Assembly: GCA_965248835.1 (NCBI GenBank)
Contig: CBDFLJ010000001.1
Coordinates: forward strand, 704,001 to 768,000
Direction of reading: 5' to 3'
From: Alphaproteobacteria bacterium
GTDB taxonomy: Bacteria; Pseudomonadota; Alphaproteobacteria; MPNO01
DNA length: 64,000 nucleotides
Of the stretch, positions 24,845 through 64,000 are shown piece by piece. The translations under genes were made by a program, and so were the position numbers. Position 1 is the first letter of the stretch. Every line of letters begins with the position of its first letter. A model generated the notes under the pieces. It was not told the origin of the DNA, did no database searches, and saw only the letters and a program-made list of their open reading frames with translations.

Positions 24845-24867
24845 TCCGATGAGGGGAGCGTCCTGAC

Positions 24868-25761: not shown

Positions 25762-25784
25762 GCGCGCGCACCACCCGGGCGGCC

Positions 25785-42176: not shown

Positions 42177-43286
42177 ATGCAGGAAGTCGATTACGGTTCC
42201 AGCGCTTATCCGGTGCGCGAGGATCTGGTCGCCGCCCAGCGCGCCGCGTGGCGGCGGCTTGGCGAGCCGGGGGCCTTTCTCGACGGCGCACGCCGGATCG
42301 CGGTCGCCTGCGAGGCGCGCAACGCGCCGTCCTGCGCGCTCTGCCGGCGCCGCAAGGACGCCCTGTCGCCCTTTGCCGTGGACGGCACCCATGACAGCCT
42401 CGGTGTCCTGGACGACACCGAGGTCGATGCCATTCACCGGATCGTCACCGATTCGGGCCGGCTCAGCCGCGAATGGGTCGACGGCCTGTTCGCCGACGGG
42501 CTGGACGACCGGGAATATATCGAGATCGTGAGCGTGATCTGCGTCGTGATGGTCAGCGATGCTTTTCGGCGCGCGCTCGACCTGCCGCCGTTCGGCTTGC
42601 CGGAGCCGGTCGTCGGCGCGCCGTCGGGCTACAGCGCTCCGGGCGCCAAGGACCATGACGGATGGATTCGCCTGGTCGTGCCCGAGGACGTCGTCCCCGG
42701 CGACGGCAAGCTCTATGGCGGAACCATGGTCGCGCCTGTCGTCAAGGCGCTGTCCCTGGTCCCCGATGCCAAGCGCCACTATTGGGAGATGGCCGAGACG
42801 CTGTATCTGCCCGGCGAACAGATGCCCAACTTCGCAACCGAAGTCCGCGCGATCGACCGCATGCAGATGGAGATCATCGCCACGAGAGTTTCAGCCCTCC
42901 ACCAATGCGTGTACTGAACCAGCTCCCATGCATTCATGCTCCGTGCGAGCATTCAACATTCCGGGACCGAGTTCGATTTGCACACCGCGATGGGCGCGAG
43001 TCGGGGCGACGGCGGCATCAGGAGCGGTCAGCACCTCGCCGACTTCGCCGAGGCGATCACCTTGCAGGACCGCGACCGCGTGGCCGCGCTGCGCGAGACG
43101 CTGGCGCACGAGCTTGGCGTTGCGGCCATGATCGATGCGGCGGCCGTAGCCTCGGCCTTCCACGGCTTCGTGCGGGTGGCCGATTCGACGGGCGCTCCGC
43201 CGGCCGGCGCATCGGGCGGCAAGGTGACCATGGAATTTCGTGAGTCGCTTGGGATCAACGACTTCTACGGCGCGGCCCACCACTAG
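42177..43286 (+). CDS. AhpD/CMD-like alkylhydroperoxidase-related selenoprotein (369 aa; Sec at TGA 42915-42917)
   Basis: ORFs 42177-42917 and 42936-43286 are in frame with no other stop: [31 protein letters not shown], i.e. the AhpD E..CxxC..H motif with Sec. Confidence 0.8.
42936..42952 (+). promoter_or_regulatory. Bacterial SECIS-like hairpin
   Basis: ATGCTC-CGTGC-GAGCAT stem-loop starting 18 nt after the in-frame TGA; GU in the loop. Confidence 0.65.
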
Positions 43287-43287
43287 G

Positions 43288-44403
43288 GTGGCCGACGGCA
43301 CGGCCGCGCGCACGCAAATCCGCGACCGTGCGCTTGCCCAGGGATTCGACGCGGTCGGATTCGCCGAGGCGGGGGCGCCGGAGACCGCCCGGCGCGACCT
43401 CGCCGCGTTCATCGCCAAGGGCTATCACGGTGACATGGGCTGGCTCGCAACGACTGCGGAGCGGCGCTGCGATCCGAAGGTCCTGTGGCCGCAGGCGCGC
43501 AGCGCCGTCGTGCTCGGGCTGAACTACGGCCCGGCCGGCGATCCGCTGGCCGCCCTCGCCCGGCCGGCGCACGGTGCAGTGTCGGTCTATGCCCAGGGGC
43601 GCGACTACCACGACGTGGTCGGCAAGCGGCTGCGCGCGCTCGCGCGCTGGATCCACGACCGCTTCGACTGCGAGGTCAAGCTGTTCGTCGACACCGCGCC
43701 GGTGATGGAGAAACCGCTCGCCCAGCGCGCCGGGCTGGGCTGGCAAGGCAAGCACACCAACCTGGTCTCGCGCGGCCACGGCTCCTGGCTGTTCCTGGGT
43801 GAAATCCTGACCACGCTGGCACTCGCCCCCGACGCCGCGGAGGACGATCACTGCGGCGTCTGCCGCCGGTGCCTGGACGTCTGCCCGACCGATGCGTTCC
43901 CCGCGCCCTACCGGCTCGATGCGCGGCGCTGCGTTTCGTATCTCACCATCGAGCACAAGGGACACATCGGGGTTGAATTCCGCACCGCGATCGGCAACCG
44001 GATTTATGGCTGCGACGACTGCCTGGCGGTCTGCCCGTGGAACAAGTTCGCGCGACGGGCCGCGGTGCCGGACTTGCAGCCGCGGATCGAGCTTGCCGCG
44101 CCGCGCCTGGCCGAGCTTGCCGGGCTCGACGATGCCGGCTTCCGTCGGGTGTTTTCGGGGTCGGCCATCAAGCGGCTCGGCCGTGACCGGTTCGTGCGCA
44201 ACGTGCTGATCGCGATCGGCAATTCGGGCGATGCGGCGCTCGCGCCCTGTGCCGAGCGCCTGCTGGGCGATGCCTCGCCCCTGGTCCGGGCGATGGCGGT
44301 CTGGGCGTTGTCGCGCTTGCTGCCGCCGGCTGCTTTCGACGGTCTGCGCGCGCGCTGCCTTGCCGGCGAATCCGATCCGGAAGTCCGCCGTGAGTGGTGC
44401 TAG
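43288..44403 (+). CDS. queG: tRNA epoxyqueuosine reductase
   Basis: [53 protein letters not shown]. Confidence 0.95.
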
Positions 44404-45434: not shown

Positions 45435-46715
45435 TCAGGGCGCGGACGGTTCCAGCGGGCGGTCGTAGAGGTCCTCGAGCGCGACGCGCCAGTCGCGGTC
45501 GTTGTCGAGGACGCGCTCGATGGCGCGGATACGGTAGTAGGTCGGGCGCACCGCCGGCGGGTCCTCGGTCAGGGCCTTGAGGTGGCGCAGCAGGATGCGC
45601 CTGGTCGCGATCACCGCAGCATCGGTGGTCCCCAGATGCTCCCTCGTGCGGTCGACGATCGGGCCCATGCTCTCCTGGACCGCATGGTCCTGGTTGTTGA
45701 TGCCGTCGATCCCGCTATAGGTCTCGCGCCGCTGCACGGTGCGGTCGATCATCCAGTCGACATCGCGGTTGCGCACCTTGCGGTGGTTGTCGCCGATCTC
45801 GCCCAGCGCGCGGCCGCGGCTCCACTCCAGCGCCTCGCGCTCCCGGTCTGCCAGCGCATCGGACCCGTACTTGGCGATCCAGTTGTAGACCATGGTGTTC
45901 TGGTCATCCATCGGCACGAACATGTGGCCGTTGATGATCGGCTGCAGGGTCTCCCCGTCATTGCCGAGCTCGAAGGGGAAGAAGGTGTGGCACGGCATCA
46001 CCCAGTGATAGACCTTCACCCACTTCCGGTCCGTGCCGAACGGCCGAATCGAGGCGTAGACGTGGCCGTAATCGGTCACCTCGACCTCATCGCGCAACGG
46101 CACGGGCACGGTCCACAGCCCGCTCAACCCGGCGCGCCCGGTCTCCGGCGTCAGCGTCGTGTGCAGCGTGGAGGCGTGCATGCTGTCGATGCCGCCCTCG
46201 AGCGCCTGAAGCCAGTTGCATTCCTGCCATGTCCTGGTGACCACCCGCTGGTCGGCGCGCAGCCGGGTCCACTCGAACAGCGGCGGGGCCGGCGGCTCGC
46301 CTTCGCCGAGATAGGCCCAGACCACGCCGCCGTGCTCGACGGTGCGGTAGGCGGCAAGCCGGATGCGCTGCTTGAAGTCGCTCTGTCGCGTCTCGGTCGG
46401 CATGTCGATGCAGCGCCCGTCGACATCGAACTTCCAGCCGTGATAGACGCAGCGCAGCCCGCTGTCCTCGTTGCGGCCGAGAAACAGCGACACCCCGCGA
46501 TGCGGGCAGAACTCTTCGACCAGCCCGACCCGGCCGCCGCTGTCGCGAAAGGCGACAAGCGACTCGCCCAGCAGCCTGACGCGGACCGGCGCCCCGTCCG
46601 GCTCGGCGATCTCCGATGACAACAGCGCCGGCATCCAGTAGCGGCGCATCAAGGCGCCGAGCGCCGTGCCGGGGCCGACGCGGGTGACCAGCTCGTTGTC
46701 TTCGCGCGACAGCAT
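45435..46715 (-). CDS. Rieske oxygenase, phthalate 4,5-dioxygenase-like (alpha-only type)
   Basis: VGPGT..G.LMRRYW, CPHRG...CVYHGW, CNWLQALEGGIDSMH..LH, QDHAVQESMG. Confidence 0.9.
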   Translation of the reverse strand: MLSREDNELVTRVGPGTALGALMRRYWMPALLSSEIAEPDGAPVRVRLLGESLVAFRDSGGRVGLVEEFCPHRGVSLFLGRNEDSGLRCVYHGWKFDVDGRCIDMPTETRQSDFKQRIRLAAYRTVEHGGVVWAYLGEGEPPAPPLFEWTRLRADQRVVTRTWQECNWLQALEGGIDSMHASTLHTTLTPETGRAGLSGLWTVPVPLRDEVEVTDYGHVYASIRPFGTDRKWVKVYHWVMPCHTFFPFELGNDGETLQPIINGHMFVPMDDQNTMVYNWIAKYGSDALADREREALEWSRGRALGEIGDNHRKVRNRDVDWMIDRTVQRRETYSGIDGINNQDHAVQESMGPIVDRTREHLGTTDAAVIATRRILLRHLKALTEDPPAVRPTYYRIRAIERVLDNDRDWRVALEDLYDRPLEPSAP

Positions 46716-46729
46716 GCCGGTCCGTCCGC

Positions 46730-47488
46730 TCAGTGTGCTTCCATCAGCCGGCCGAAGCCAGGCATCCGGTCGGCGATGTCGTTCTGGCGCAAGGCGTACC
46801 AGTAGGTCGCGGTCATCACCGCGATCACCGGCTTTGCGAGCCAGCGCTCGGCCTCGGCCGCGACATAGGCCATCGGCAGGTTGGCGCCGAACTGCACGAT
46901 CGCATCGACATCGGGGCCGTCGACCTTGCGGACCGCCTCGCGCAGGGCGTCCTCGGAGATGTGGGCGATGTTGACCGGGCTGTCGCAGGCCAGGCACTCG
47001 GTACGCACCAGCTCGAACCCGGTCTCCTCGGCAAACGCCTCCAGATGGCCTATGGCGACGGGGTAGTAGGGACACACGATCGCGATCCGCCTGATCTCCT
47101 CGCCGAAGGCTCGCAGTGCCGCGGGCAGGGCGTCCGCGGCCTGGGTGACGCCGATATCGGTCTCCGCGCGGTCCTTGATCCGCCGCTCGATCTTGCGGGC
47201 CGGCTCGAGCCCGCCGCCCCAGATGCTCTCGGCCGAGATGCCGAGGATCAGATGGTCCGGCCGGCAGGTCATCACCCGGTCGATCGATTCCTCCAGGGCC
47301 GCGTCGATCCGCCGGATCAGCTCGTCGAAATCCGCATCCGAGCCGATCGGATCGTCGGGGATATGCATGCGCGAGATGTGGTTGGTCACTCCCTTGGGCG
47401 CCATCGCGTCGTAATGCGGCTGGACGATCGTGTTGGTGGACGGGGTGACGACCCCGAATTTCATTCGCCAAGCCCAGGCGTCGACCAT
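46730..47488 (-). CDS. Maleate cis-trans isomerase / arylmalonate decarboxylase family protein
   Basis: GVVTPSTNTIVQ, IAIVCPY, VQFGANLP, GFGRL. The usual catalytic CT motifs are replaced (GIS, GAN). Confidence 0.8.
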   Translation of the reverse strand: MVDAWAWRMKFGVVTPSTNTIVQPHYDAMAPKGVTNHISRMHIPDDPIGSDADFDELIRRIDAALEESIDRVMTCRPDHLILGISAESIWGGGLEPARKIERRIKDRAETDIGVTQAADALPAALRAFGEEIRRIAIVCPYYPVAIGHLEAFAEETGFELVRTECLACDSPVNIAHISEDALREAVRKVDGPDVDAIVQFGANLPMAYVAAEAERWLAKPVIAVMTATYWYALRQNDIADRMPGFGRLMEAH

Positions 47489-47511
47489 TGTCGTGTCCCC
47501 TTTTCTGGTGG

Positions 47512-49104
47512 TCAGTCCGGACGAAGCCGGTAGCGTTGGATCTTGCCGGTCGCGGTCTTCGGCAGGTCGTCAACGATCTCGATCCAGCGCGGATACTTGA
47601 ACGGCGCCAAGCGCCCGCGCACGAAGGCGACGAGATCGTCGGCGATCGCTTCCCGGGCGGCGCCTGCGTCCTTGAGCACCACATAGGCCTTGGGCTTTAT
47701 CAGCCCGGCCTCGTCGGGCCAACCGACGACGGCGGCCTCCAGCACCGCGGGATGGGCGGCGAGCGCGGACTCGACCTCGAACGGGGCGACCCAGATGCCG
47801 CCCACCTTGAGCATGTCGTCCTCGCGTCCGCAGAAGAAGTAGTAACCGTCCTCGTCGCGGTAGCAGGTATCGCCGGTGAAGAACCAGCCGTCGCGCATCG
47901 CGCGCGCGGTCCGCTCGGGCTTGTTCCAGTAGCAGGTGGTGATGCTCTCGCCCTTGATCACGAATTCGCCGGCCTCGCCGTCGGCAAGCTCGGAGCCGTC
48001 CTCGCCGAGGATGCGGCCCTCGTAGCCCGGCACGATCGGCCCGCAAGAGCCCGGCTTGACGCTTCCCGGACGGTTGGCGGTGTAGAAGTGAAGCGCCTCG
48101 CTGGAGCCGATCGATTCGATGATCTCGCTGCCGGTGCGCGCCAGCCAGCCCTCGTAGACCGGAGCCGGCAGCGGCTCGCCGCCCGAGGCCGACCATCGGA
48201 TGCTGGTCAGATCGGCAGCCCGCCCGGCCTCGAGCGCGGCAAGCTGCATCGCATAGAGCGTGGGGACGCCGAAATAGACCGTCGGCTTGAACGCGGCGAT
48301 GGCATCGAGCGTGTTCTCCGCCGTCGGGCGGTCCTCCAGGTAGACGCAGCGCGCCCCGGTCCACAGCGGAAACGAGACCGCGTTGCCGAGCCCGTAGGCG
48401 AAGAACATCTTCGGCGGGGAGAACAGGACATCGTCCGGGCCGATGCCGGCGACCGCCTCGGCGTAGTAGAGCGCGGTATAGACCTGGTCCTTGTGCTGGT
48501 GGACCGACGCCTTGGGTGCGCCCGTCGAGCCGGAGGAATAGAGCCAGAAGCAGTCGGTCTCTGGTGTCGTCGCGGCCGGTGGGCAGACCGGGTCGGCGGC
48601 CGCCAGGAGGGTGTCGTGCGACAGCCAGCCGGACGGGGCGCCATCGACGCAGATCCGGTGCGCGACCGCCGCGCCCGCCTCGGCCAGGGCGGGCTCGACC
48701 TCCTCGAACATGTCGGCGTGGGCGATCACCGCGCGGGCACCGGAATCGGCCAGCATGTAGGCGTAGTCGGCTGCGCGCAGGAAATAGTTGACCGGGATCG
48801 CCACCGCGCCGATCCGCGCCGCGCCCAGGAAGCCGTCCCAAAATGCCGGTCCGTCCTTGCAGAACAGCATGATGCGCTCGCCCGGGACGATCCCCAACGC
48901 CTTGAGCGCGTTGGCGGCCCGGTTCACCCGCTCGGCCATCTGGGCAAAGCTGAAGGCGGCCCCGGCGGAGACCAGCGCGGTCCTGTCCCCGCGTCCCGCG
49001 TCCAGATGCCGGTCGAGGAAGGCGACCGAGACGTTGAACGTCTCGGCGAACCGCACCCCGTAAGGGGTCTTCGTGCGATCGACCTCGACCGTGTGGGGCT
49101 TCAT
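47512..49104 (-). CDS. Benzoate-CoA ligase family aryl-CoA ligase
   Basis: FWLYSSGSTGAPK, KMFFAYGLGN, IGSSE, GREDDMLKVGGIWV, LPKTATGKIQRY. Confidence 0.9.
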   Translation of the reverse strand: MKPHTVEVDRTKTPYGVRFAETFNVSVAFLDRHLDAGRGDRTALVSAGAAFSFAQMAERVNRAANALKALGIVPGERIMLFCKDGPAFWDGFLGAARIGAVAIPVNYFLRAADYAYMLADSGARAVIAHADMFEEVEPALAEAGAAVAHRICVDGAPSGWLSHDTLLAAADPVCPPAATTPETDCFWLYSSGSTGAPKASVHQHKDQVYTALYYAEAVAGIGPDDVLFSPPKMFFAYGLGNAVSFPLWTGARCVYLEDRPTAENTLDAIAAFKPTVYFGVPTLYAMQLAALEAGRAADLTSIRWSASGGEPLPAPVYEGWLARTGSEIIESIGSSEALHFYTANRPGSVKPGSCGPIVPGYEGRILGEDGSELADGEAGEFVIKGESITTCYWNKPERTARAMRDGWFFTGDTCYRDEDGYYFFCGREDDMLKVGGIWVAPFEVESALAAHPAVLEAAVVGWPDEAGLIKPKAYVVLKDAGAAREAIADDLVAFVRGRLAPFKYPRWIEIVDDLPKTATGKIQRYRLRPD

Positions 49105-49170
49105 GATCCTTGCCTCCCCGGCGACTATAGTAAGCCGTCCGGCCCCGATCCATGCCGAAGGAATGCCGCC

Positions 49171-49536
49171 ATGCACGCCGAGCACAGCGCGACCCAGATC
49201 GCCGCCCACGTCCTGGTCGGGGGCTACTTCCTGATCATGCTGTGGAAGAACCTCAGGCTCTACCGCTGGAATGTCGAGCGCATGGGTGCCAACGGCGTGC
49301 CGTTTCCGGAAGTCGTGCTGCCGGCGGGCTTCGTGGTCCAGTTCGTCGGCGCCGTGCTCGTGCTGATCGACTACCGGGCGGAGACCGGCGCGTCCCTTCT
49401 GCTGGTCTTCACCTTCGTTGCGACCGCGATCTTCCACCGCTACTGGCGCATGGACGATCCGGTACGGCGCAACTACCACATGCTCCTGGGGCTCAACAAT
49501 GTCGGGCTGACGGGCGGTCTGCTGCTGTTGTTCTGA
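49171..49536 (+). CDS. DoxX family membrane protein
   Basis: About 4 TM helices, FHRYW, NVGLTGGLL. Confidence 0.75.
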   Translation: MHAEHSATQIAAHVLVGGYFLIMLWKNLRLYRWNVERMGANGVPFPEVVLPAGFVVQFVGAVLVLIDYRAETGASLLLVFTFVATAIFHRYWRMDDPVRRNYHMLLGLNNVGLTGGLLLLF

Positions 49537-49607
49537 GAGGATCCGCAAGGCCGTTGACGCCTCTCGGCCCGAGGACAATCATGCGGGCCAGCCTTGAGGG
49601 GGGCCGC

Positions 49608-51947
49608 ATGAGCGACAAGGGGATCGGCGTGAGCGTCCTGCGCAAGGAGGACGGGCGCTTCATGACCGGGCGCGGCAGCTTCGTCGCCGATATCGCCGCG
49701 GCCAACATGGTCAATATCGCCTTCGTGCGCAGCCCTGTCGCCCACGCAAGGATCGTCGGGGTGACCAAGCCCGCCGGTGCCGAGGACCGGGTGCTGACGG
49801 TTGCCGACCTGACCGGCGTCGAGCCGATGCGCGCACCCTCGAAGCTGCCCGGCTACAAGGCCTCCGACTACCCGGCGCTGGCGACCGGCAAGGTGCGGTT
49901 CGTGGGCGAGCCGGTGGTTGCCTGCATCGCCGAGACCCGCGCCGAGGCCGAGGACCTCGCGGAGGCGGTCGAGGTCGCCTACGACGAGCTTCCCCCGGTC
50001 GTCGACATGCTGGAGGCGCGTGCACCGGACGCGCCGCTGGTGCATGAAGCCTGGGGCGACAACGTCGTCCTGGAGACCCGGATCGACGGCGACATGGACG
50101 AGGCGATCGCCGGCGCCGCGCATTCGGTGACCCGCGAAGTCCGGATGAGCCGCCAGGCGATGGTCCCGATGGAGGCCCGCGCGGTGATGGCCCAATGGGA
50201 CCACCGGATGGACCAGCTCGTGGTTTACACCTCCACCCAGGTACCGCACCTGATCCGCTCGGGGCTGGCGATCTTCCTGGGGCTCGAGCAGCGCCAGGTC
50301 CGGGTCATTGCGCCCGATGTCGGCGGCGGGTTCGGGCTGAAATGCTATGTCCAGCCCGAGGAGCTGGTGGCATCGTGGTGCGCGATCAACATGGGCCGGC
50401 CGGCGCGCTGGATCGAGGACCGGCGCGAGCATCTGATCGCCGATGCCAATTGCCGCGAGCACCACTACAGGATCACCGCGCACGCCGACGAGACCGGCAG
50501 GATCCTGGGGCTGGAGGGCGAAATCACCGTCGATGCCGGCGCGTACTCGATCTACCCCTTCACCAACTGCCTGGAAGCCGCCATGGCCGGCGGCAACCTC
50601 CTGGGGCCATATGCGATCGGCGCCTACCGGGCGAAGACCTACACGATGGCGACCAACAAGCCGCCGCTGGTGCCCTATCGCGGCGTGGCCCGGCCGGGCG
50701 TCGCCTTCGCGATGGAGACCCTGATCGACGCGGTGGCGCGGACCGTCGGGCGCGAGCCGCACGAGGTCCGCATCGACAACATGGTGCCGGCGTCCGCGAT
50801 GCCGTTCACCAACATCGCCCGCAAGACTTTCGACTCCGGCGATTACCCTCAGGCCGTCGGCAGGGTCGCGGACATGATCGATGTCGAAGCCGTCCGCGCG
50901 CGCCAGCGCAAAGGCGAGCCGGACGGGCGGCTGATCGGGCTCGGCTTCGGCAGCTATACCGAGCAGACCGCGCACGGCACTTCGGTGTTCGCGAGCTGGG
51001 GCGTCCAGATGGTCCCGGGCTACGAGCAGGCCGGCGCCAAGCTGACACCGGACGGCGGGCTCGAGCTCAAGGTCGGCGTCCAATCGCACGGCCAGGGGAT
51101 GGAGACCACGCTCGCCCAGATCGCCTGCGAGGTCCTGGGCATCGATCCAGCCAATGTCACGGTCATCCACGGCGATACCGGGCTGACGCCGTATTCGACC
51201 GGCACCTACGCATCGCGCTCGATCGTCATGGCCGGCGGCGCGGTCTCGCGCGCCTGCAAGGTCCTGGCCGGGCGGATGGCGGCGATCGGCGCCCACCTGA
51301 TGCAATGTGCGCGCGAGGAGGTGAACGTCGCCGGCGGCGTCGTGTCGGGGCCGGCCGGCGAGGTGCCGTTCTCCGAAATCGGCCGGGTCTGGTACATGAA
51401 CCCCGAGGAGCTTCCCGGCGATGTCGACATGGGCGGGGTCGAAGCGGTGATGGGCTACCGGCCCGACCCCGACCACGGGACGTTCTCCTATTCGACCCAC
51501 GCCGCGGTGATCGCGCTCGATCCCGATACCGGCGCGGTCGAGGTGCTGGATTACGCCGTCGTCGAGGATTGCGGCACGATGGTCAATCCGATGGTGGTCA
51601 GCGGACAGTGCTATGGCGGCGCCGCGCAGGGCATCGGCACGGCCCTGTTCGAGGAATCGCCGTTCGACGAGGCCGGCCAGCCCTTGGCCTCGACATTCGC
51701 CGACTACCACCTGCCCGGCGCCTCGGAAGTGCCGGCGATCCGCGTCGAGCACATGATCACCCCGTCTCCGCATACCGAATTCGGCCTGAAGGGCGTCGGC
51801 GAGGGCGGCACGATCCCGACGCCGGCGGTGATCGGCAACGCGGTCAACGACGCGCTGCGCGGGTTCGGCGCGGAAGTCAACCAGACGCCGATAACGCCGC
51901 GCCGGGTCCTGGCGGCGATCGCGGCGGCACGAGGAGAGGCGGCATGA
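49608..51947 (+). CDS. Xanthine dehydrogenase-family molybdopterin-binding large subunit (CoxL-like)
   Basis: RKEDGRF, STQVPH, DVGGGFG, active-site loop PYRGVAR, SHGQG, KGVGE. Confidence 0.9.
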   Translation: MSDKGIGVSVLRKEDGRFMTGRGSFVADIAAANMVNIAFVRSPVAHARIVGVTKPAGAEDRVLTVADLTGVEPMRAPSKLPGYKASDYPALATGKVRFVGEPVVACIAETRAEAEDLAEAVEVAYDELPPVVDMLEARAPDAPLVHEAWGDNVVLETRIDGDMDEAIAGAAHSVTREVRMSRQAMVPMEARAVMAQWDHRMDQLVVYTSTQVPHLIRSGLAIFLGLEQRQVRVIAPDVGGGFGLKCYVQPEELVASWCAINMGRPARWIEDRREHLIADANCREHHYRITAHADETGRILGLEGEITVDAGAYSIYPFTNCLEAAMAGGNLLGPYAIGAYRAKTYTMATNKPPLVPYRGVARPGVAFAMETLIDAVARTVGREPHEVRIDNMVPASAMPFTNIARKTFDSGDYPQAVGRVADMIDVEAVRARQRKGEPDGRLIGLGFGSYTEQTAHGTSVFASWGVQMVPGYEQAGAKLTPDGGLELKVGVQSHGQGMETTLAQIACEVLGIDPANVTVIHGDTGLTPYSTGTYASRSIVMAGGAVSRACKVLAGRMAAIGAHLMQCAREEVNVAGGVVSGPAGEVPFSEIGRVWYMNPEELPGDVDMGGVEAVMGYRPDPDHGTFSYSTHAAVIALDPDTGAVEVLDYAVVEDCGTMVNPMVVSGQCYGGAAQGIGTALFEESPFDEAGQPLASTFADYHLPGASEVPAIRVEHMITPSPHTEFGLKGVGEGGTIPTPAVIGNAVNDALRGFGAEVNQTPITPRRVLAAIAAARGEAA

Positions 51948-52774
51948 AACCGGCCAGGTTCGACTACGCGCGGGCGGGCGACGTCGGTGAGGCGGTGCGC
52001 CTGCTGGGCGCGACCGAGGGGTTCAACAAGCCGCTCGGCGGGGGTATGTCGCTCGGCCCGATGATGAACCTGAGGCTCGCACAGCCCGACCTCGTGGTCG
52101 AGGTCCGCGGGATCGAGGCGCTCCAACGCATCGAGGACCGTGGCGAGGCCCTGCTGGTCGGCGCCGGGACGACGCATGCGATGATCGAGGACGGCCGGAT
52201 CCCCGATGTCACCAACGGCATGATGCGCTTCGTCGCCGGCCAGATCGCCTACCGCGCGGTGCGCAACCGGGGCACGATCGGCGGCAGCATCGCTCACGCC
52301 GATCCGGCTGCGGACTGGCCGACGGCGCTGTTATGCCTGGGCGCCGATGCGGTGATCGCCGGACCGGGCGGCGAGCGATCGGTCGCGCTGGCCGATTTCC
52401 AGATCGGCGCCTTCACCGTCGCGCTGGAACCCGAGGAGATCCTCACCGGGCTGGTCGTGCCGAAACTCTCCAACCGGGCGAGATGGGGCTATTACAAGAT
52501 CTGCCGCAAGCCCGGCGAGTTCGCCGATTCGATCGGGGCGGTGGTCTTCGACCCGGCGCGCAGCTTCTGCCGGGTCGTGCTGGGCGCGACCGACGGCGCG
52601 CCGCTCCAGGTCCCCGAACTGGCCGAGCGGATCGCCGGGTCGGGCAGCGGCGAAGTCGAGATCGAGGATGCGAAGCAGGCGTTAGCCGGCCAGGGCGCCG
52701 TCTTTGACGATTACGGCACCCAGATCCACGCCGTCGCGCTCAGCCGGGCAATAAAGGGAGCGTTCGCGTCATGA
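51944..52774 (+). CDS. Mo-hydroxylase FAD-binding subunit (CoxM-like)
   Basis: MKPARFDY, GGMSLGPMMNLRLA, VRNRGTIGGSIAHADPAAD. Confidence 0.9.
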   Translation: MKPARFDYARAGDVGEAVRLLGATEGFNKPLGGGMSLGPMMNLRLAQPDLVVEVRGIEALQRIEDRGEALLVGAGTTHAMIEDGRIPDVTNGMMRFVAGQIAYRAVRNRGTIGGSIAHADPAADWPTALLCLGADAVIAGPGGERSVALADFQIGAFTVALEPEEILTGLVVPKLSNRARWGYYKICRKPGEFADSIGAVVFDPARSFCRVVLGATDGAPLQVPELAERIAGSGSGEVEIEDAKQALAGQGAVFDDYGTQIHAVALSRAIKGAFAS

Positions 52775-53241
52775 GCGAGGTCAGCCTCACCATCAACGGC
52801 CGCGCCGTCACCGCCAGCGTCGAGCCGCGCACCAGCCTGGCGGACTTCGTGCGCGAGAGCCAGCGCCTGACCGGCACCCATCTGGGCTGCGAGCACGGGG
52901 TGTGCGGGGCTTGCACGGTCCTGATCGACGGTGAGCCGATGCGCTCGTGCATCACCTTTGCGGTGAGCTGCGACGGGGTCGAGGTGACCACCATCGAGGG
53001 CTTCGACGAGGACGAGGTGATGGAGGATCTGCGCCAGGCCTTCACCGAGCACCACGGCCTGCAATGCGGCTACTGCACACCCGGCATGCTGGTGACCGCG
53101 CGCGACATCGTCACCCGACTGCCCGATGCCGACGAGAAGCGGGTCCGGCTGGAGCTGTCGGGCAATCTGTGCCGCTGCACCGGCTATGTCGGGATCGTCC
53201 GCGCCATCCTCGCGGTCCTCGACAAGCGCGCCAGGGCATAA
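52771..53241 (+). CDS. Mo-hydroxylase 2x[2Fe-2S] subunit (CoxS-like)
   Basis: GCEHGVCGAC, QCGYCTPG, NLCRCTGY. Confidence 0.95.
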   Translation: MSEVSLTINGRAVTASVEPRTSLADFVRESQRLTGTHLGCEHGVCGACTVLIDGEPMRSCITFAVSCDGVEVTTIEGFDEDEVMEDLRQAFTEHHGLQCGYCTPGMLVTARDIVTRLPDADEKRVRLELSGNLCRCTGYVGIVRAILAVLDKRARA

Positions 53242-53266: not shown

Positions 53267-54145
53267 TCAGGCGGAATAGGGCATCGCCCACGCCCGTTGC
53301 TCGTGGCCCGGCGCGTAGGCCATATTGGTTTGATCCGGGTTGCGGTTGACCAGCGGGCGGGCATAGAGCGGGTGGGTCATCGAGCGTATCTCGTGCTCGA
53401 GGGTGAACAGCACCTCGCCGCTGGTCTCATCGACGATGTCCTTGAACCGGTATTGGTGCTGGTTGTCTTCCTGGCTGATCAGCCCGCGTTCGCCGAGACG
53501 GTGATAGGGCCCCGAGAAGTCCGCGACATAGACCTGGATATGGTGGCCGTCATAGGGCGCGGCCGGCGTATCGGTCTCGCGGAACAGCAGCGACTGGGTG
53601 CCGCCGGCACCGACCCGCGCGGCCGGAGCGTCCTCGTCGTCCTCCACCGCTGCCGGTGCGCCGAAGACCGTCTCGTAGAACCGCGCGATCCCTGCAGCCG
53701 CTCCGGGCGGCACGTCGAGGCGGAGATAGGCCATGCCCAGCGTGGTGCGGTCGAACCTCTTGCCCGGGCCGTGCACCCGGAAGCGGTTGCCCCACGGACA
53801 GCTCACATCGACGTGGTCGTTGGCCGGGGTGAAGCCGAACGCCGTCTCGGCCAGCGGCTCGCGGACATCGTCCAGGCGCGTGACAAGGCCGTCGAGGTCC
53901 GGGCTGACCAGGCCGACCACGCCGCGCAGCCTCTGGGGCTCGCCCGTCGGCAGGTGAAACTGGCTGCGCCCGACATTGATCCACATGTTGGTCACCCCGG
54001 TCACCAGATAGGGATCGCGCGTGAGCCCGAGCCCGGTGACGTAGAACAGAGTCGCCAGCCGCTGGTCGGGCACGCACACATTGACATGCTCCAGCGCGAC
54101 GATGTTGCCGACATCTTCCGCCGTTCGATCGAATGTCTTCGCCAC
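53267..54145 (-). CDS. Hypothetical VOC-like (glyoxalase-fold) protein
   Basis: LEHVN...LFYVTGLG, QFHLP, RFYETVFG, GHHIQVY, LEHEIRS suggest repeated beta-alpha-beta-beta-beta units. Confidence 0.65.
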   Translation of the reverse strand: MAKTFDRTAEDVGNIVALEHVNVCVPDQRLATLFYVTGLGLTRDPYLVTGVTNMWINVGRSQFHLPTGEPQRLRGVVGLVSPDLDGLVTRLDDVREPLAETAFGFTPANDHVDVSCPWGNRFRVHGPGKRFDRTTLGMAYLRLDVPPGAAAGIARFYETVFGAPAAVEDDEDAPAARVGAGGTQSLLFRETDTPAAPYDGHHIQVYVADFSGPYHRLGERGLISQEDNQHQYRFKDIVDETSGEVLFTLEHEIRSMTHPLYARPLVNRNPDQTNMAYAPGHEQRAWAMPYSA

Positions 54146-54249
54146 GGTTCATCCCCCGGCTGAATTTGATCACGTCCCCGCGAGCCTAGCAGCGCCCGGC
54201 CGCCGGCGCATTATCCGATTAAGCGGATTCTGCCCGATTGGAACTCGCG

Positions 54250-54867
54250 CTAAGAGCCGGACTCCGCGCCGAGCTTGCCGAGAACCGCATCGACCTCCGG
54301 CCTGTCGCGGTGGTCGCGGGAGGAAAACCGGTGGCGGACGATGCCCTGGTCATCCAGCACGACGATCATCGGCGTGGCGAACCCGTACCACGGGCTGGTC
54401 GCAGGAACGCTCGGGTCGATCAGGTCGAAAGCCGAAATGATGCGCGAGCCCTTGTCCGAAAGCAGCGCGAACGCGATCCGGTCGCGTTTTGCGAACCCGG
54501 CGAGCTTGGGCATCGGATCGTAGGTGACCGCCGCCAGCCGGTAGCCCAGCTCAGTGACCTTATGGATCTGTCGGTTCCAGGCGACCGCCTGGGATTTGCA
54601 GTGGGGTCACCAATCGAAGGACCGGGAAAACATCAGGATCAGCCCGCGCTTGCCGCGCAGCGACCGGAAATCGCGGGTTGCGCCGATTTGATCCTTGGCG
54701 GCGACGGATACCGCAGCCGCCATGCCGATCTCCGGACCCTGGGTGAGCTGGTCGACGGCACCGGCCGCCAGGGCCTGCGGGCCGGCGAGCCCGCTGACCG
54801 TCAGGGCCGCCAGCGCGACCGCGACGGCGGTCGGGCGCAGCAACGTCCATGTCCGATTTGACCCCAT
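54250..54867 (-). CDS. Exported peroxiredoxin/AhpC-TSA-like selenoprotein (about 205 aa; Sec at TGA 54607-54609)
   Basis: Signal peptide, GPEIG...LILMFSRSFDW-U-PH-C-KSQ...AVTYD...FALLSD: thioredoxin-fold WCPxC with Sec; frame is open from the TGA to TAG 54250. Alternative start 54888. Confidence 0.85.
54577..54592 (-). promoter_or_regulatory. Bacterial SECIS-like hairpin
   Basis: CCAGGC-GGUC-GCCUGG; the loop starts at nt 21 after UGA, and the GGUC loop resembles E. coli fdhF SECIS. Confidence 0.75.
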
Positions 54868-54926
54868 CGATCTCTCCGCGTAGGACATGCCGCATTCACG
54901 GCCGGAGCATGCAGGACCGGTCGCGA

Positions 54927-54950
54927 TTTCACAATCAATTGATTGTGAAA
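54927..54950. repeat. Perfect 24-bp AT-rich palindrome (operator candidate)
   Basis: TTTCACAATCAATTGATTGTGAAA is its own reverse complement; it lies between divergent genes. Confidence 0.8.
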
Positions 54951-54981
54951 GGACCCGCACGGATCGAGCCGGCCGAGGGCG

Positions 54982-55707
54982 ATGACAGACGGCCCCGACA
55001 TTCTTGCTCGGCTGGACCGCTCGCTCGCGGCAACCGGCCTGCTCGTGCGCGGCGGATTTCATCCGGATCCGGCGGATCGCGTGCCCGAGCTCGCCGATGG
55101 ACGGTCGCCGCGCACCGCAGTGCTGATCGGCAATGCCGGCGGTGCGTTGTGGCGCGCCTTTGCCGCCGCGCGCGCCGAAGATCCCCGATCGTTCGACCCG
55201 CGCCACCCGCTGGACCGATGGCTTCGGCCGCGGATCGAGGCGGCCGCCGCCGCGGTCGGTGCCGAACCGGTCTTCCCCAACGACGGCCCGCCCTTCGTTC
55301 CGATCCTCGACTGGGCGCAGCGCGCCGAGCCGGTCTATCGCTCGCCGATCGGCATCATGATCCACCCCGAATTCGGGCTGTGGCATGTCTATCGCGCGGC
55401 GCTGCTGTTCGCCGGGCGGCTCGACATGCCGGCCCGCGCAGATCAACCGAGCCCGTGCGAGACCTGCGCCGGGCGGCCGTGCCTCAAGGTCTGCCCGGTC
55501 GATGCGTTCGAGCCCGACAGGTTCGCCGCCGAGCGCTGCGCCGGTCATGTCGAGTCCGCCGCGGGTACTCCGTGCCGCGAGCGCGGCTGCCTTGCGCGGC
55601 GGGCCTGTCCGGTGGCCGCGGACCTGCGCTATCCGCGGGACGCCCAGGCCTTCCACACCGCTGCCATGCTCGGTGCCGTCCGGCGCGGCTTCGGGGCCGC
55701 CCGATGA
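54982..55707 (+). CDS. 4Fe-4S protein with QueG/CblC-like region
   Basis: SPIGIMIHPEFGLWHVYRAA; CETC...CLKVCP; C...GCLARRACP. Confidence 0.75.
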   Translation: MTDGPDILARLDRSLAATGLLVRGGFHPDPADRVPELADGRSPRTAVLIGNAGGALWRAFAAARAEDPRSFDPRHPLDRWLRPRIEAAAAAVGAEPVFPNDGPPFVPILDWAQRAEPVYRSPIGIMIHPEFGLWHVYRAALLFAGRLDMPARADQPSPCETCAGRPCLKVCPVDAFEPDRFAAERCAGHVESAAGTPCRERGCLARRACPVAADLRYPRDAQAFHTAAMLGAVRRGFGAAR

Positions 55708-56726
55708 CCGGCCGGAATTTCCACAGCGACAACGTCGCCCCGGTGCATCCCGACGTGATGAGCGCGATCGCTTCGGCGAATGACGGCCCGGCGATGTCCT
55801 ACGGCGCCGATGCGATCTCGGCCCGGCTCGATGCCCTCCTGGGCGATGTCTTCGGTGCCGAGGTCCGGGTCGTTCCGGCGGCCAGCGGCACCGCGGCAAA
55901 TGCCTTGGCGCTTGCCGGGCTCGCCCGGCTCGGCACCCGGATCCTGTGCCACGAGTTGGCCCACATCCGGGTCGCCGAGGAAGGCGCGCCGGAATTCTAC
56001 GTCCCCGGGGCGGCGTGCGATCCGTTGCCCGGAGCGCACGCGATGATCGAGCCGGCAGCGCTGGCCCGCGCGCTGGACGCGCGAGGCGGGATCCTGAGCA
56101 TCACCCAGGCAACCGAGCAGGGGACCGTCTACCCGCCCGAGGCGGTCGCCGCGCTCACCGGCCCGGCGCGGGCGGCGGGCCTGGGCGTGCACATGGACGG
56201 GGCGCGGTTCGCCAACGCGGTCGCGAGCCTCGACTGCACGCCGGCGGCGATCACCGCCGCGGCCGGCATCGATGTGCTCGCCCTGGGGACGTCGAAGAAC
56301 GGCACGCTGAATGCCGAGGCAGTGGTCTTCTTCGACACGGCACTTGCCGAAGATCTTGGCCCGATGCGCAAGCGCTCCGGTCACTTCTATTCGAAGATGC
56401 GCTATCTCGGCGCCCAACTCGAGGCCTGGTTCGCGGGCGGGCTCTGGCTGCGCTTGGCGCGCCACGCCAATGCGATGGCACGCCGCCTGGCCGATGGGCT
56501 GAGTGCAGTGCCCGGCATCGCGCTCCTCGCCCCGGTCCATGCGAACCTGGTCTTCGTCGACATGCCCGTGCCGCTGATTTCCGCGCTGCAGGGCGAAGGC
56601 TATGTGCTCGAGGCAAGGGGCGGTGCCACGCGGGTCCGGCTGGTCCCCAGCCATGCGACGACCGAAGCCGACGTGGATTCGCTGATCGCCGCCGCGCGGC
56701 GGCTGGCCGATCCTCAATCCCGCTGA
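55704..56726 (+). CDS. ltaE: Low-specificity L-threonine aldolase
   Basis: NFHSDN, GTAANALAL, TQATEQGTVY, HMDGARFANA, GTSKNG (PLP Lys), SKMRY. Confidence 0.85.
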   Translation: MTGRNFHSDNVAPVHPDVMSAIASANDGPAMSYGADAISARLDALLGDVFGAEVRVVPAASGTAANALALAGLARLGTRILCHELAHIRVAEEGAPEFYVPGAACDPLPGAHAMIEPAALARALDARGGILSITQATEQGTVYPPEAVAALTGPARAAGLGVHMDGARFANAVASLDCTPAAITAAAGIDVLALGTSKNGTLNAEAVVFFDTALAEDLGPMRKRSGHFYSKMRYLGAQLEAWFAGGLWLRLARHANAMARRLADGLSAVPGIALLAPVHANLVFVDMPVPLISALQGEGYVLEARGGATRVRLVPSHATTEADVDSLIAAARRLADPQSR

Positions 56727-57703
56727 TCGTCGGCGATCCGCGCGCGTCTGCGGGTCATACGCAAGGCGAGGCGCGCCGCGGTGCCCGGCCGGCTCCATGG
56801 GCAGACCGCGATACAGATGCCGCAGCCTTGGGTGTCGTTGAAATAGGGGATGCACTTGTCGAAATCGACGTACCAGCGTTCGACCCCGCGGACCCACTGA
56901 CGCTCGCGGTGGATCGCATCGGGCGGGCACGCGGCGGTGCACACCTGGCAACTCACGCAGAAATCGTCGGCGCCGAAGACATCCGGCCGGTCGGCAACCA
57001 GCGGCAGATCGGTCAGCACGCCGGCCAGCCGGAACGAGGAACCGTATTCGCGGTTGATCATCGAGCCGTGCTTGCCGAGCTCGCCCAGCCCGGCCTCGAT
57101 CGCCGCCGGGATCAGGGTGACCGGGCCGGCGGTCGGCCCGCCGTGCGGGCGCGCGTCATAGCCCAGCCCCTGGATGAGGTTCGCCACCGCGCGCGCGGCG
57201 CGGGTGCCGCGGTTGTACTGCGCCATCACCTCGACCGCGGCCTCGATCTCGGGCGCCTTGGCAAGCGCCGCATGGTCCATCGCGACGCCGATCACGACGA
57301 TCCAGGGCTCCGGCGCGTCGTAGCCTTCGAAGATCCACTCCGGGTTCATCGCCGCGATCCCGACGAGGTCCGCCTCGTTGGCCAGCGCGTGCGCTTTGAC
57401 CTGCGCGGTCCATTCCTCGGGCGTGCCGGTGGATCGGGCGGTGGGCTTGGGCGGCGCCTGCTTCGCGCCGCGCCCACCGTATTTCAGGTGGAAGTCCTTG
57501 AGCGCCGGATAGGCCTCGAACTGCTCCATGTAGTAGTCTTGCAGCGCCCTGTGCGGGATGTCGGTGCCGTAGTGCCAGAAGACCGGGCGCGGCCGCCGGC
57601 GGGCGCGCTCGCCCTGGCCGTTGATCGTGTTGCCGGAGATCGGCGGGAACAGCCTGAGCTGGACCTCCGGCGGCTGGTAGGTCGGCTTGGCCCGTCTGGC
57701 CAT
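56714..57703 (-). CDS. Reductive dehalogenase/QueG-like cobalamin-2x[4Fe-4S] protein
   Basis: ADLVGI, AGLGELGKHG..I...YG..FRLAGVLTDLPL, FCVSCQVCTAACP, KC...GCGICIAVCPW; no Tat signal seen. Confidence 0.8.
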   Translation of the reverse strand: MARRAKPTYQPPEVQLRLFPPISGNTINGQGERARRRPRPVFWHYGTDIPHRALQDYYMEQFEAYPALKDFHLKYGGRGAKQAPPKPTARSTGTPEEWTAQVKAHALANEADLVGIAAMNPEWIFEGYDAPEPWIVVIGVAMDHAALAKAPEIEAAVEVMAQYNRGTRAARAVANLIQGLGYDARPHGGPTAGPVTLIPAAIEAGLGELGKHGSMINREYGSSFRLAGVLTDLPLVADRPDVFGADDFCVSCQVCTAACPPDAIHRERQWVRGVERWYVDFDKCIPYFNDTQGCGICIAVCPWSRPGTAARLALRMTRRRARIADDQRD

Positions 57704-62154: not shown

Positions 62155-62673
62155 TCAGACCGGGAACACCAGGTTGTTGTCGATCATCACGGTATCGTAG
62201 ACGCACCTTCGGTCCTTGATCAGCAGCGTATCGCCGTTGCGGACCAGGACGTCATAATACTTGCCGACCTGCTGGATAGTGCTGGGTCCATCGACCAGGG
62301 TCTGGACCAGCATATAGCTCGCCTGCGCGGTGATGGTCGGCTCGTCGACGGCGAGGATGCGGGTGTTGGTGATGCGAAGCTGCAGGTAGCGCGGGGCGTA
62401 CATCTCGGTGTGGCGCAGCGCGAAGGCGCGGTCCTTCAGCATCGCCTTGCCTTCGCAATAGACCAGGCCGAGCGGCAGGCCGTGATCGTCGTTGTCGCGC
62501 GCGATCACCTTGTAGTTGGCGTCCTCGGTGAAGAACTCGGGCCAGCTCTCGATCTCGCCGCGCTCCAGCACCGCGGCATACTCGTAATAGAACTCCTCGA
62601 CCTCCATCCGCACCTCGCGGAGCGACGCGCGGCTCGTCGGCCCTTGGGCCTCGACCGGGACCCGGCTCGCCAT
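62155..62673 (-). CDS. Aromatic ring-hydroxylating oxygenase beta subunit (NagH/AndAd-like)
   Basis: WPEFFTEDANYKVIARDN...LPL..VYCEGKAMLKDR, VGKYYD, CVYD...LVFPV. Confidence 0.9.
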   Translation of the reverse strand: MASRVPVEAQGPTSRASLREVRMEVEEFYYEYAAVLERGEIESWPEFFTEDANYKVIARDNDDHGLPLGLVYCEGKAMLKDRAFALRHTEMYAPRYLQLRITNTRILAVDEPTITAQASYMLVQTLVDGPSTIQQVGKYYDVLVRNGDTLLIKDRRCVYDTVMIDNNLVFPV

Positions 62674-62834
62674 CGCTAAGTGGCCGCACTCGGCAGGCGC
62701 GTCATGCCTTCCCCGAGCCGGCATCGCTCGCGGGCGCGGCACCAAGGGTGCCGGCTCCGCGCGGCTTCGCCGCATGTCCGGGATGAGGGGCCGGGCCGCC
62801 GTGGTCGTCGCACCGGATCGCTCTCCGCCTGCGC

Positions 62835-64000
62835 CTACAACGCCATCACTTGCCGGTAATAGCGGTACATCGCCCGGATCGCGCGTTCGGTGATGATCGT
62901 CGCCGAGTTCTCGTCGTCGTCGCCGAGCATCGCAAGGCCGACCCGAGGCATCGAGCGGCGCAGGCCTTCCTGCAGGAACTTCAGCGCTTCGTTGTCCTCG
63001 ATACCGAGGAACCCGCCGGGCCCGAAGACGTTGTTCTGGCGCAAGCGGTGGCGGGTCATCTCCTCGTCGTCGGAGGCCCGGCCGAAGACGGCCCAGATCA
63101 TCATCAACTCGTTCGGCCCGCGCGGCACGATGATCCGCGTGTTCAGGATGTTGGTCTGGCGCAGCGCGCTGAGGTTGGGGAAGATCGTCATCGCCACGCC
63201 CGACCAGGGCGAATCGCCGAACTCCCGAACGAAATTGAGCACGCTGGGATCGTTCAGCTCATAGCCCTCGCGGAAGGCCTGCATGTTGGCCCGCTCTTCC
63301 TCGTCGACCTGCGGGGCGCCGTCGGGCCGGCGTGACTTGAGCGCGCTGTGACGCCCGCTCGGATCGACCAGGATGTCGGATTCGTTGCTGGTCACGAACA
63401 GGCCGAATGTCGTCAGGTAGGTGTGCAGCAGCGTCGCGTGATAGGGGTCCTTCAGGTTCTCCTGATAGAGCTTCCAGTTGCCGGGCAGGATGTTGCGGTG
63501 GAGGCCCAGCAGGCGCAGCTCCTCGCCCGGAAAGATCGAGTTGAATTGCTCCAGGATCTCCGGTCCGAGATAGTCCTCCAGCGGCACGGTCTCTGCCGAG
63601 GCGGTCACGAAAATCGTGCCGTGATGGGTCTGGACCTTGAATTTCCGCAGCCCGTGTTCGTCCATCTCGAAGGCGCGCGTCATGCCGCCTTTGCCCTTGA
63701 CCCCGCGGCGGAACGGGATCGCGACCAGATTGCCTTTCAGGTCGTAGGTCCAGTTGTGATAGGGGCAGATGAAGGTCTCGGTGTTGCCGCGGTACTCGCG
63801 GCAGTACTCGACCCCGCGGTGGGCGCAGCGGTTTTCGAAGACGTGGATCTCGCCGTCCATGTCCCTTGTGACCACCACCGGTATGTCACCGACGAAGGAG
63901 CGGAAATAGTCGCCCGGGTTCGGCGCCTCGCATTCCAGGCCGACGAAGTTCCAGTGCCTGCCAAGGAAGATCCGTTCCTGCTCCAGCGCATAGATGCGAG
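62835..64000 (-). CDS. Aromatic ring-hydroxylating oxygenase alpha subunit (NagG/salicylate 5-hydroxylase-like); 5' end outside the window
   Basis: EQERIFLGRHWNFVGLECE; ENRCAHRG...CPYHNW; NWKLYQENLKDPYHATLLH; GPGGFLGIED. Confidence 0.9.
   Translation of the reverse strand, partial: RIYALEQERIFLGRHWNFVGLECEAPNPGDYFRSFVGDIPVVVTRDMDGEIHVFENRCAHRGVEYCREYRGNTETFICPYHNWTYDLKGNLVAIPFRRGVKGKGGMTRAFEMDEHGLRKFKVQTHHGTIFVTASAETVPLEDYLGPEILEQFNSIFPGEELRLLGLHRNILPGNWKLYQENLKDPYHATLLHTYLTTFGLFVTSNESDILVDPSGRHSALKSRRPDGAPQVDEEERANMQAFREGYELNDPSVLNFVREFGDSPWSGVAMTIFPNLSALRQTNILNTRIIVPRGPNELMMIWAVFGRASDDEEMTRHRLRQNNVFGPGGFLGIEDNEALKFLQEGLRRSMPRVGLAMLGDDDENSATIITERAIRAMYRYYRQVMAL

Follow-up and report, generated by a model that had tools for sequence, protein, structure and literature searches.

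Introduction

Peroxiredoxin-like (Prx-like) thiol:disulfide oxidoreductases are a known class of selenoproteins that is defined by domain and motif (PMC9312934). They are tabulated under PF00578 and UxxC/UxxU (U, selenocysteine or Sec) in PMC9312934 and PMC13188914, with WP_010940744.1 as listed type sequence. The class was first predicted in work cited as Kryukov and Gladyshev 2004, appears as 'Prx-like protein' in the Sargasso Sea study (PMC1088965) and is entered in Table 2 of the Global Ocean Sampling (GOS) study as Prx-like 1, pfam00578, UxxC, with 225 sequences (PMC2398784). Here, a putative leader-bearing member was analysed in a 64,000-nucleotide stretch of bacterial DNA (contig CBDFLJ010000001.1, positions 704,001 to 768,000), which is referred to as the window and in which all positions are counted. 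The minus-strand frame 54867..54250 very probably is a genuine gene, with a secreted redox protein of thioredoxin fold and an active-site selenocysteine as its product. It is missed in annotation, and gene callers split its open reading frame (ORF) in two.

The predicted product fits the class 'Prx-like thiol:disulfide oxidoreductase, PF00578, UxxC' by domain and motif, an assignment made without a comparison to the type sequence. Like members of the class, it has a PF00578 domain with Sec at the first position of UxxC, and neither TxxU nor UGC. Distance from true peroxiredoxins and a thioredoxin-like motif, both described for the class in PMC1088965, are shared as well. Unlike the class in general, the relatives of the gene form a cluster of their own, with the motif FSRSFDW-U-P-x-C and a leader peptide. 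Export is unmentioned in the passages on the class in PMC2398784 and PMC13188914, in which 'signal peptide' and 'periplasm' have no occurrences. The hosts named in PMC1794560 are anaerobic Deltaproteobacteria, whereas the window carries oxygenase genes. As the class was predicted two decades ago, the novelty is the leader-bearing subgroup missed by current annotation; knowledge of Sec decoding and of selenoprotein classes is unchanged by this gene.

Reading frame and conservation of the in-frame stop

The frame runs from ATG at 54867 to TAG at 54252..54250 and comprises 205 codons with TGA read as U. Its sole in-frame stop is the TGA at 54609..54607 (codon 87), which lies within ...LILMFSRSFDW-U-PHCKSQAVAWN... 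and gives the active-site motif W-U-P-H-C. An earlier sequence-only reading of the window had reported RSFDW-TGA-PHCKSQ on the minus strand and a frame continuing into an 87-aa ORF, and both were confirmed. ORF finding with translation table 11 detected the 87-aa tail alone (54250..54513). In the protein collection, the gene is stored as two ORFs of 86 and 87 aa on a 2,285,380-base contig and its relatives are split likewise, so the description of the gene as 'hidden' was apt. The G+C content of third codon positions (GC3) is coding-like on either side of the TGA (0.82 in the 150 nt before, 0.84 in the 150 nt after). Support for the start codon comes from the database ORF P0155 and from two orthologues, P0029 and P0161, whose sequences begin with MGSNR/MRSNR. 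Pfam AhpC-TSA (PF00578) matched residues 52-179 across the TGA (E=1.4e-18, 67.5 bits, gathering cut-off 26), in agreement with one continuous gene, and Redoxin (PF08534) matched residues 59-196 (E=6.9e-10).

For analysis of the U column, homologues were collected by an exhaustive HMMER search of 1.84 billion representatives, which gave 1292 relatives at E<=0.001. From 150 listed homologues, 92 were picked by eye for stand-alone length (about 150-250 aa) and aligned. The other 58 (fusions, fragments and P0002) were excluded, and column counts omit the query row. Cys occupies the U column in 90 of the 92 homologues and position 90 in 91 of them, within the motif R-S-x-x-W-C-P-x-C-x-x-Q. Near-invariant positions are R82 (91/92), S83, W86, Q93, D138, G162, P166 (Pro in 89/92) and R189 (90/92). 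Absence of Cys at the TGA position had been named beforehand as a possible refutation; Cys was found, and the placement of Sec at the first position of a redoxin CxxC held. Among the matches listed in the HMMER search and a near-length search, no full-length relative exceeded 49% identity; the closest of them was P0005.

A search limited to shorter proteins yielded 23 matches, namely the two own halves, 15 N-terminal ORFs and six C-terminal ORFs. The 15 N-terminal ORFs are located on other contigs, several of them 1.9-5.3 Mb in size, and are 57-73% identical. Together with the own N-terminal ORF, all 16 end in ...FSRSFDW. In one case, the N-terminal (P0161) and the C-terminal ORF (P0156) were found on the same 3,868,867-base contig. 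The recurrence of a stop at one codon in 15 diverged sequences argues against a pseudogene, a nonsense mutation or a sequencing error. The gene and at least 15 relatives are thus stored only as truncated ORFs (about 75-105 aa), and a read-through-based model would let pipelines recover the subfamily.

For tree construction, 96 columns of the C-terminal part were used, with the query, the first 59 Cys rows, 10 split fragments and three odd-frame rows (33 Cys rows omitted); resolution is limited by the short alignment. One group of 14 rows (Shimodaira-Hasegawa-like approximate likelihood ratio test, SH-aLRT, 90) contains 11/11 split rows, 2/3 odd-frame rows and 1/59 Cys rows. The last is P0006 (173 aa), the sole full-length Cys form inside the split (Sec) cluster. 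Its motif is altered to R-P-M-V-L-C-P-T-C, its stored sequence is devoid of a leader, and it may be a Sec-to-Cys reversion. The Sec forms described here and the Cys forms P0005 and P0006 are a natural pair for gauging what selenium contributes in a periplasmic thioredoxin-fold site.

RNA structure downstream of the TGA

The perfect hairpin CCAGGC-GGUC-GCCUGG, which the sequence-only reading had placed after the TGA, is present at +15 to +30 past the UGA and was considered as a putative selenocysteine insertion sequence (SECIS). The exact form of two 6-bp arms around GGTC occurs once within the window. The surrounding 66 nt (54615..54550) fold at -21.6 kcal/mol compared to -15.7 +/- 2.5 for shuffled sequences (z = -2.3; 3/200 shuffles as stable), and minimum-free-energy and centroid structures agree. 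For estimation of the background, a comparable hairpin was defined by at least 6 Watson-Crick pairs, a loop of 3-8 nt, a G among the first two loop bases and a loop start 14-37 nt downstream of a TGA (window G+C, 68.6%). At gathering thresholds, Rfam gave no match anywhere in the window, hairpin included.

The structure had been called 'fdhF-like'. The SECIS of Escherichia coli fdhF has a GGUC loop and a bulged U in its stem. The hairpin at codon 87 shares the position soon after the UGA and the four-base GGUC loop, and in the predicted fold the UGA itself is drawn into a lower helix. It differs in that its stem is devoid of the bulged U and in that the loop G-U is about 2 nt farther from the UGA than in fdhF. 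The likeness holds for the loop and not for the bulge. A small G-containing loop is described as a common feature of bacterial SECIS elements in the Sargasso Sea study (PMC1088965).

The peptide QAVAWN, which comprises the hairpin-encoded residues and the following N, was found in all three split-clade sequences that show this stretch in frame (P0001, P0002 and P0128). It was found in none of the 92 Cys homologues, in which positions 94-97 are variable. In the two relatives P0003 and P0004, where the stretch is translated in the -1 frame, the peptide PGGRLE is identical to that of the window in this frame, which would fix 11 of the 16 hairpin bases in both. The conservation of QAVAWN and PGGRLE may be an indirect sign of constraint on the RNA, and could also be caused by close kinship.

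Second selenoprotein gene and decoding of UGA

The claim that the 64-kb window holds two Sec genes was borne out. The second frame (42177..43286, plus strand) lies about 11.7 kb away and contains a TGA at 42915..42917 in C-V-Y-U-T. It is likewise split by table-11 calling, into 42177..42917 and a downstream frame. Read through, the corresponding protein P0176 (42168..43283) matched NF041238 'alkylhydroperoxidase-related (seleno)protein', an equivalog model, at 417 bits (E=5.7e-125; cut-off 175), over residues 16-367 and hence across the TGA. A 6-bp hairpin ATGCTC-CGTGC-GAGCAT (42936..42952, loop CGUGC) starts 19 nt past this TGA. The AhpD-related family is listed as CxxU in a table of a 2026 review (PMC13188914). 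A literature search for the motif CFYUT gave no match. That a curated selenoprotein equivalog is matched on both sides of the TGA in this second gene makes Sec decoding by the organism very likely.

Several other candidates were checked and rejected. A reassigned genetic code was ruled out, because TGA terminates most genes and is the commonest stop (28 of the 51 listed high-GC3 frames). In-frame TGAs with coding-like flanks at 24850 (plus strand) and 32171 (minus strand) lie where two separately matched frames abut and were taken as ordinary stops. The sole ARAGORN call, a 97-nt 'tRNA-Thr(cgt)' at 25940..26036 (plus strand) with its anticodon at position 37, was rejected as a tRNA-Sec. It has no Rfam match and lies inside the coding frame 25542..27491 of a spermidine-synthase-domain protein, and probably is a false positive.

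Protein fold and active-site residues

For structure prediction, an AlphaFold2 model was calculated from a 93-row alignment. The mean predicted local distance difference test score (pLDDT) was 89 and the predicted template modelling score (pTM) 0.81, with low confidence only at residues 1-40 (block means 54-69). The top matches in a Foldseek search of the PDB were all peroxiredoxins, namely Bcp4 (3hjp), BcpB (5epf), AhpE, PrxQ and AhpC, and the nearest structures were of the BCP/PrxQ and AhpE types. The top four (3hjp, 5epf, 5id2 and 2ywn) had E values of 2.8e-12 to 4.6e-10 and target-normalised TM scores of 0.79-0.87.

When aligned to 2ywn by phmmer, the protein has Cys90 at the position of the peroxidatic Cys and Sec87, three residues earlier, in the slot of the conserved Thr. 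The Arg of the 2ywn segment ...AKRAVFVID, which we take to be the peroxiredoxin catalytic Arg, is occupied by Pro166. The peroxiredoxin signature PxxxT/SxxC is absent, as position -3 from Cys90 is Sec or Cys and position -7 is Ser83. The conserved Arg is absent from the aligned slot too, which holds Pro in 89 of the 92 homologues. In the model, helix 88-99 has Sec87 at its N-terminal end, and strand 167-171 is directly preceded by Pro166. A CxxC at a helix start combined with a cis-Pro is the geometry of thioredoxin-like oxidoreductases, and W-C-P-x-C is a motif of thioredoxin/TlpA type. Pro166 is a candidate for the thioredoxin-type cis-Pro by its position in the model. The designation 'peroxiredoxin-like' given in the sequence-only reading is therefore correct for the fold and not for the active site, where Sec is in the Thr slot and Pro in the Arg slot.

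The predicted layout of export signal, W-U/C-x-x-C type motif at a helix N-terminus and conserved Pro before the next strand is also that of TlpA, ResA and CcmG. Weak sequence matches to ResA were obtained (3c71, E=8.6e-4; NF002854, 19.2 bits), with a score far under the cut-off of 170, and the nearest structures are peroxiredoxins and not ResA. Pfam and NCBIfam scans of the neighbours revealed no cytochrome-maturation or DsbD/CcdA gene near the locus. With the SelL-related family NF040769, the protein shares a Prx-like fold and a Sec-bearing xxC/xxU redox motif (weak match at residues 53-150, E=3.8e-6). The score of 26.7 bits is below the cut-off of 120 and excludes membership, and the motif of SelL proper is UxxU. 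The Sec-peroxiredoxin (TxxU, PF00578) of Eubacterium acidaminophilum, cited in PMC13188914, is similar in Pfam family, overall fold and the presence of selenium in a thiol-redox site. Its Sec is the peroxidatic residue of PxxxTxxU (PMC13188914), whereas in the present protein Sec occupies the Thr slot and Cys90 the peroxidatic slot. The Pro and the Arg of the peroxiredoxin site are missing here.

Given this fold, the same selenoprotein might act as an atypical periplasmic thiol peroxidase that removes H2O2 or organic hydroperoxides and not protein disulfides, with Cys90 as peroxidatic residue that is resolved or activated by Sec87, or with these roles exchanged. Such a role is in line with the top Foldseek matches (Bcp4, BcpB, AhpE, PrxQ and AhpC), with the BCP type of the best PDB and NCBIfam sequence matches and with the alignment of Cys90 to the peroxidatic Cys of 2ywn; R82 or R189 could stand in for the missing catalytic Arg. 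It is nevertheless judged rather unlikely, as W-C-P-x-C is of thioredoxin/TlpA type and the Arg slot is so consistently Pro. PxxxTxxC, which corresponds to the PxxxTxxU of Sec-peroxiredoxins (PMC13188914), is absent as well.

Putative leader peptide

The N-terminus encoded in the window has Arg5 and Arg11, a hydrophobic core at about residues 13-24 (12-residue mean Kyte-Doolittle hydropathy 2.32) and A32-L33-A34, followed by AGAVD. Inspection of all 16 orthologue N-termini revealed the same signal-like organisation. Each has basic residues and a hydrophobic stretch, with Kyte-Doolittle maxima of 2.26-3.35 over 12 residues, and in each a small-x-small motif precedes (A/E/D)-(G/A/E/D)-(A/S)-V-D. 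The signal peptide proposed earlier is thereby supported, and cleavage is predicted after Ala34 by the -3/-1 rule. The low AlphaFold2 confidence at residues 1-40 is as expected for a leader. A twin-arginine leader was considered and rejected: RR is present in only 5 of the 16 N-termini and absent from the window's own, which favours export of the general secretory (Sec) type. Leader-bearing bacterial selenoproteins, SaoC and SaoB, are described in a preprint (bioRxiv 10.1101/2022.07.06.499078), so that exported bacterial selenoproteins are not unheard of.

Evaluation of the selenoprotein assignment

Several observations weigh against an exported selenoprotein as assigned here. None of selA, selB and selD was detected in the 64-kb window (Pfam scans of 61 frames), nor was a tRNA-Sec (ARAGORN, Rfam). 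The hairpin alone is weak evidence, as a comparable one follows 88 of the 1291 TGA triplets of the window (6.8%; both strands, all frames); against this background, a hairpin is present at both candidate Sec codons. In 13 of the 15 N-terminal ORFs of relatives, the stop is known from the protein end and not as a codon. A scan of genome contigs with a single protein gave four distant loci (21-26% identity), among them neither an orthologue nor the window's own genome, and tblastn against a plasmid collection gave no match. In two of the 92 Cys-family homologues, Ser replaces Cys at the U column. P0002 (154 aa, 60% identical, 511-base contig) reads W-S-P-H-G and thus has neither Sec nor Cys; many other substitutions are scattered along it, and it represents an inactive variant or else a sequence of low quality. 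In P0003 (118 aa) and P0004 (197 aa), the UxxC/hairpin stretch is translated in the -1 frame (VTLLQEPGGRLEP), with a return to the main frame just past the hairpin. No NCBIfam model matched at its cut-off (BCP NF006960, 32.3 of 140 bits; SelL-related NF040769 and ResA NF002854 as given above), which probably explains why the gene was left split by pipelines. Export was judged by inspection of hydropathy and motif. The function is ambiguous, with structural neighbours that are all peroxiredoxins and active-site residues that are thioredoxin-like.

The odd-frame stretches of P0003 and P0004 correspond to 54560..54620 of the window, and the two sequences are mutually independent. P0004 also leaves the main frame farther upstream, and its N-terminus is otherwise nearly identical to that of the normally terminated P0168. 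Assembly indels near the G+C-rich hairpin are suspected in both; they could also be real frame-disrupted copies. As they read the stretch as (RL)VT in the -1 frame, the main frame would have to hold TGA at this point.

Were the TGA a true stop, the locus would be a pseudogene, a split gene or a sequencing error from which no full-length protein is made. The two ORFs given by table-11 calling, the lack of visible Sec machinery in the window and the frame-disrupted database versions P0003 and P0004 are compatible with this. It is very improbable all the same, since the TGA falls exactly on the catalytic Cys column, the same codon stops in 15 other diverged sequences and coding-type GC3 persists on both sides. 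Moreover, the 32 codons from the TGA to the first downstream ATG align with homologues, the hairpin follows the TGA, and a second gene of the window with the same arrangement matches a curated selenoprotein model.

Readthrough without selenium was also considered, by insertion of Cys through a tRNA-Sec-like tRNA or of Trp through near-cognate reading. In some bacteria, Sec sites are reportedly recoded to Cys by tRNA-Sec-like tRNAs, and genes of the selenium-specific steps (selA, selD) were not seen in the window. No such tRNA was found in the window by ARAGORN and Rfam either, the family of the neighbouring AhpD-related gene is curated as selenoprotein, and a SelB/SECIS route would still be needed. 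Readthrough of this kind is regarded as extremely improbable.

Proposed catalytic mechanism

We conclude that 54867..54250 probably is a single gene, which encodes a secreted Prx-like thiol:disulfide oxidoreductase of thioredoxin fold with the active site Sec87-Pro-His-Cys90. During translation, SelB with Sec-tRNA(Sec) would bind the GGUC hairpin 15-30 nt past the UGA, by which selenocysteine would be inserted at codon 87 and termination avoided. The leader would route the chain through the Sec translocon, and its removal after Ala34 would release a periplasmic protein of about 171 residues. Located at the start of helix 88-99, Sec87 would correspond in position to the Cys with which thioredoxin, TlpA or ResA attacks. 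Its selenolate may attack a disulfide or a sulfenic acid of the substrate, or perhaps a peroxide, after which Sec87 and Cys90 would form a selenenylsulfide. Re-reduction could be accomplished by a membrane electron shuttle of the DsbD/CcdA type. For the physiological role, we lean towards a disulfide or sulfenate reductase; the redox direction and the partners are proposals.

Aerobes rarely keep selenoproteins according to a 2026 review (PMC13188914). The gene adds a secreted UxxC redoxin beside the AhpD-related selenoprotein in a bacterium whose other genes suggest an aerobic lifestyle. Tentatively, the FSRSFDW-U-P-x-C group may be a distinct leader-bearing selenoprotein subfamily outside the curated models, in oxygen-using high-GC bacteria (probably Pseudomonadota). 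In these, a dedicated reductase or peroxide scavenger of the oxidising periplasm would have a selenol as its nucleophile and might be co-regulated via a unique 24-bp palindrome just upstream. If true, this would mean Sec use outside the cytoplasm by aerobes.

Locus features and genomic surroundings

The coordinates of the features assigned at the locus are given in Table 1.

Table 1. Features of the putative selenoprotein gene and positions in the window.
Feature	Position	Strand	Remarks
Whole gene	54250..54867	-	205 codons + TAG; AhpC/TSA-fold product, predicted to be exported; PF00578 across residues 52-179
GGAG, Shine-Dalgarno-like motif	54874..54877	-	6 nt ahead of ATG 54867; putative, read from the sequence
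Signal-peptide-like N-terminus, codons 1-34	54766..54867	-	From hydropathy and motif inspection
In-frame TGA, codon 87, presumably read as selenocysteine	54607..54609	-	Cys column in homologues; orthologue ORFs stop there
TGC, Cys90, second residue of UxxC	54598..54600	-	Cys in 91/92 homologues; aligns with peroxidatic Cys (phmmer against 2ywn)
Putative SECIS upper hairpin	54577..54592	-	Stem CCAGGC/GCCUGG, apical loop GGUC; encodes Q-A-V-A-W
Extended predicted structure	54550..54615	-	Predicted outer 9-bp helix (54613..54605 with 54559..54551) encloses hairpin
Pro166 codon	54370..54372	-	Near-invariant; precedes strand 167-171; slot of peroxiredoxin catalytic Arg; candidate cis-Pro

Downstream on the same strand and after a gap of 104 nt, a VOC/glyoxalase-like protein is encoded at 53267..54145 (Atlas feature score 0.98; no Pfam or NCBIfam match). 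Upstream and divergent, a 241-aa protein with Cys-rich motifs (54982..55707) is followed by a beta-eliminating-lyase/aldolase-like gene. These neighbours yield no functional clue. Neither promoter-like nor terminator-like sites were found in a scan of 53900..55100.

A perfect 24-bp palindrome, TTTCACAATCAATTGATTGTGAAA, is located at 54927..54950, in the intergenic region that separates the selenoprotein gene from the divergent 54982..55707. The window has no other copy of its 20-bp core even if 3 mismatches are tolerated, and 0/100 shuffles match. The palindrome is a candidate operator for some regulator.

Farther away, 56714..57703 (minus strand) encodes two 4Fe-4S motifs and scored 128 bits with TIGR02486 'reductive dehalogenase' (cut-off 160) and 59 bits with QueG; a bona fide QueG-like gene is located at 43240..44403. 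The regions 45435..53241 and 62155..63998 are rich in oxygen-dependent enzymes and enzymes for aromatic compounds, among them Rieske oxygenases with LigXa-like or ring-hydroxylating domains, and also hold an AMP-dependent ligase and an arylmalonate-decarboxylase-like gene. A three-subunit molybdenum hydroxylase (CoxL/M/S-like) is encoded at 49152..53241. The oxygenase and aromatic-compound genes suggest an aerobic heterotroph.

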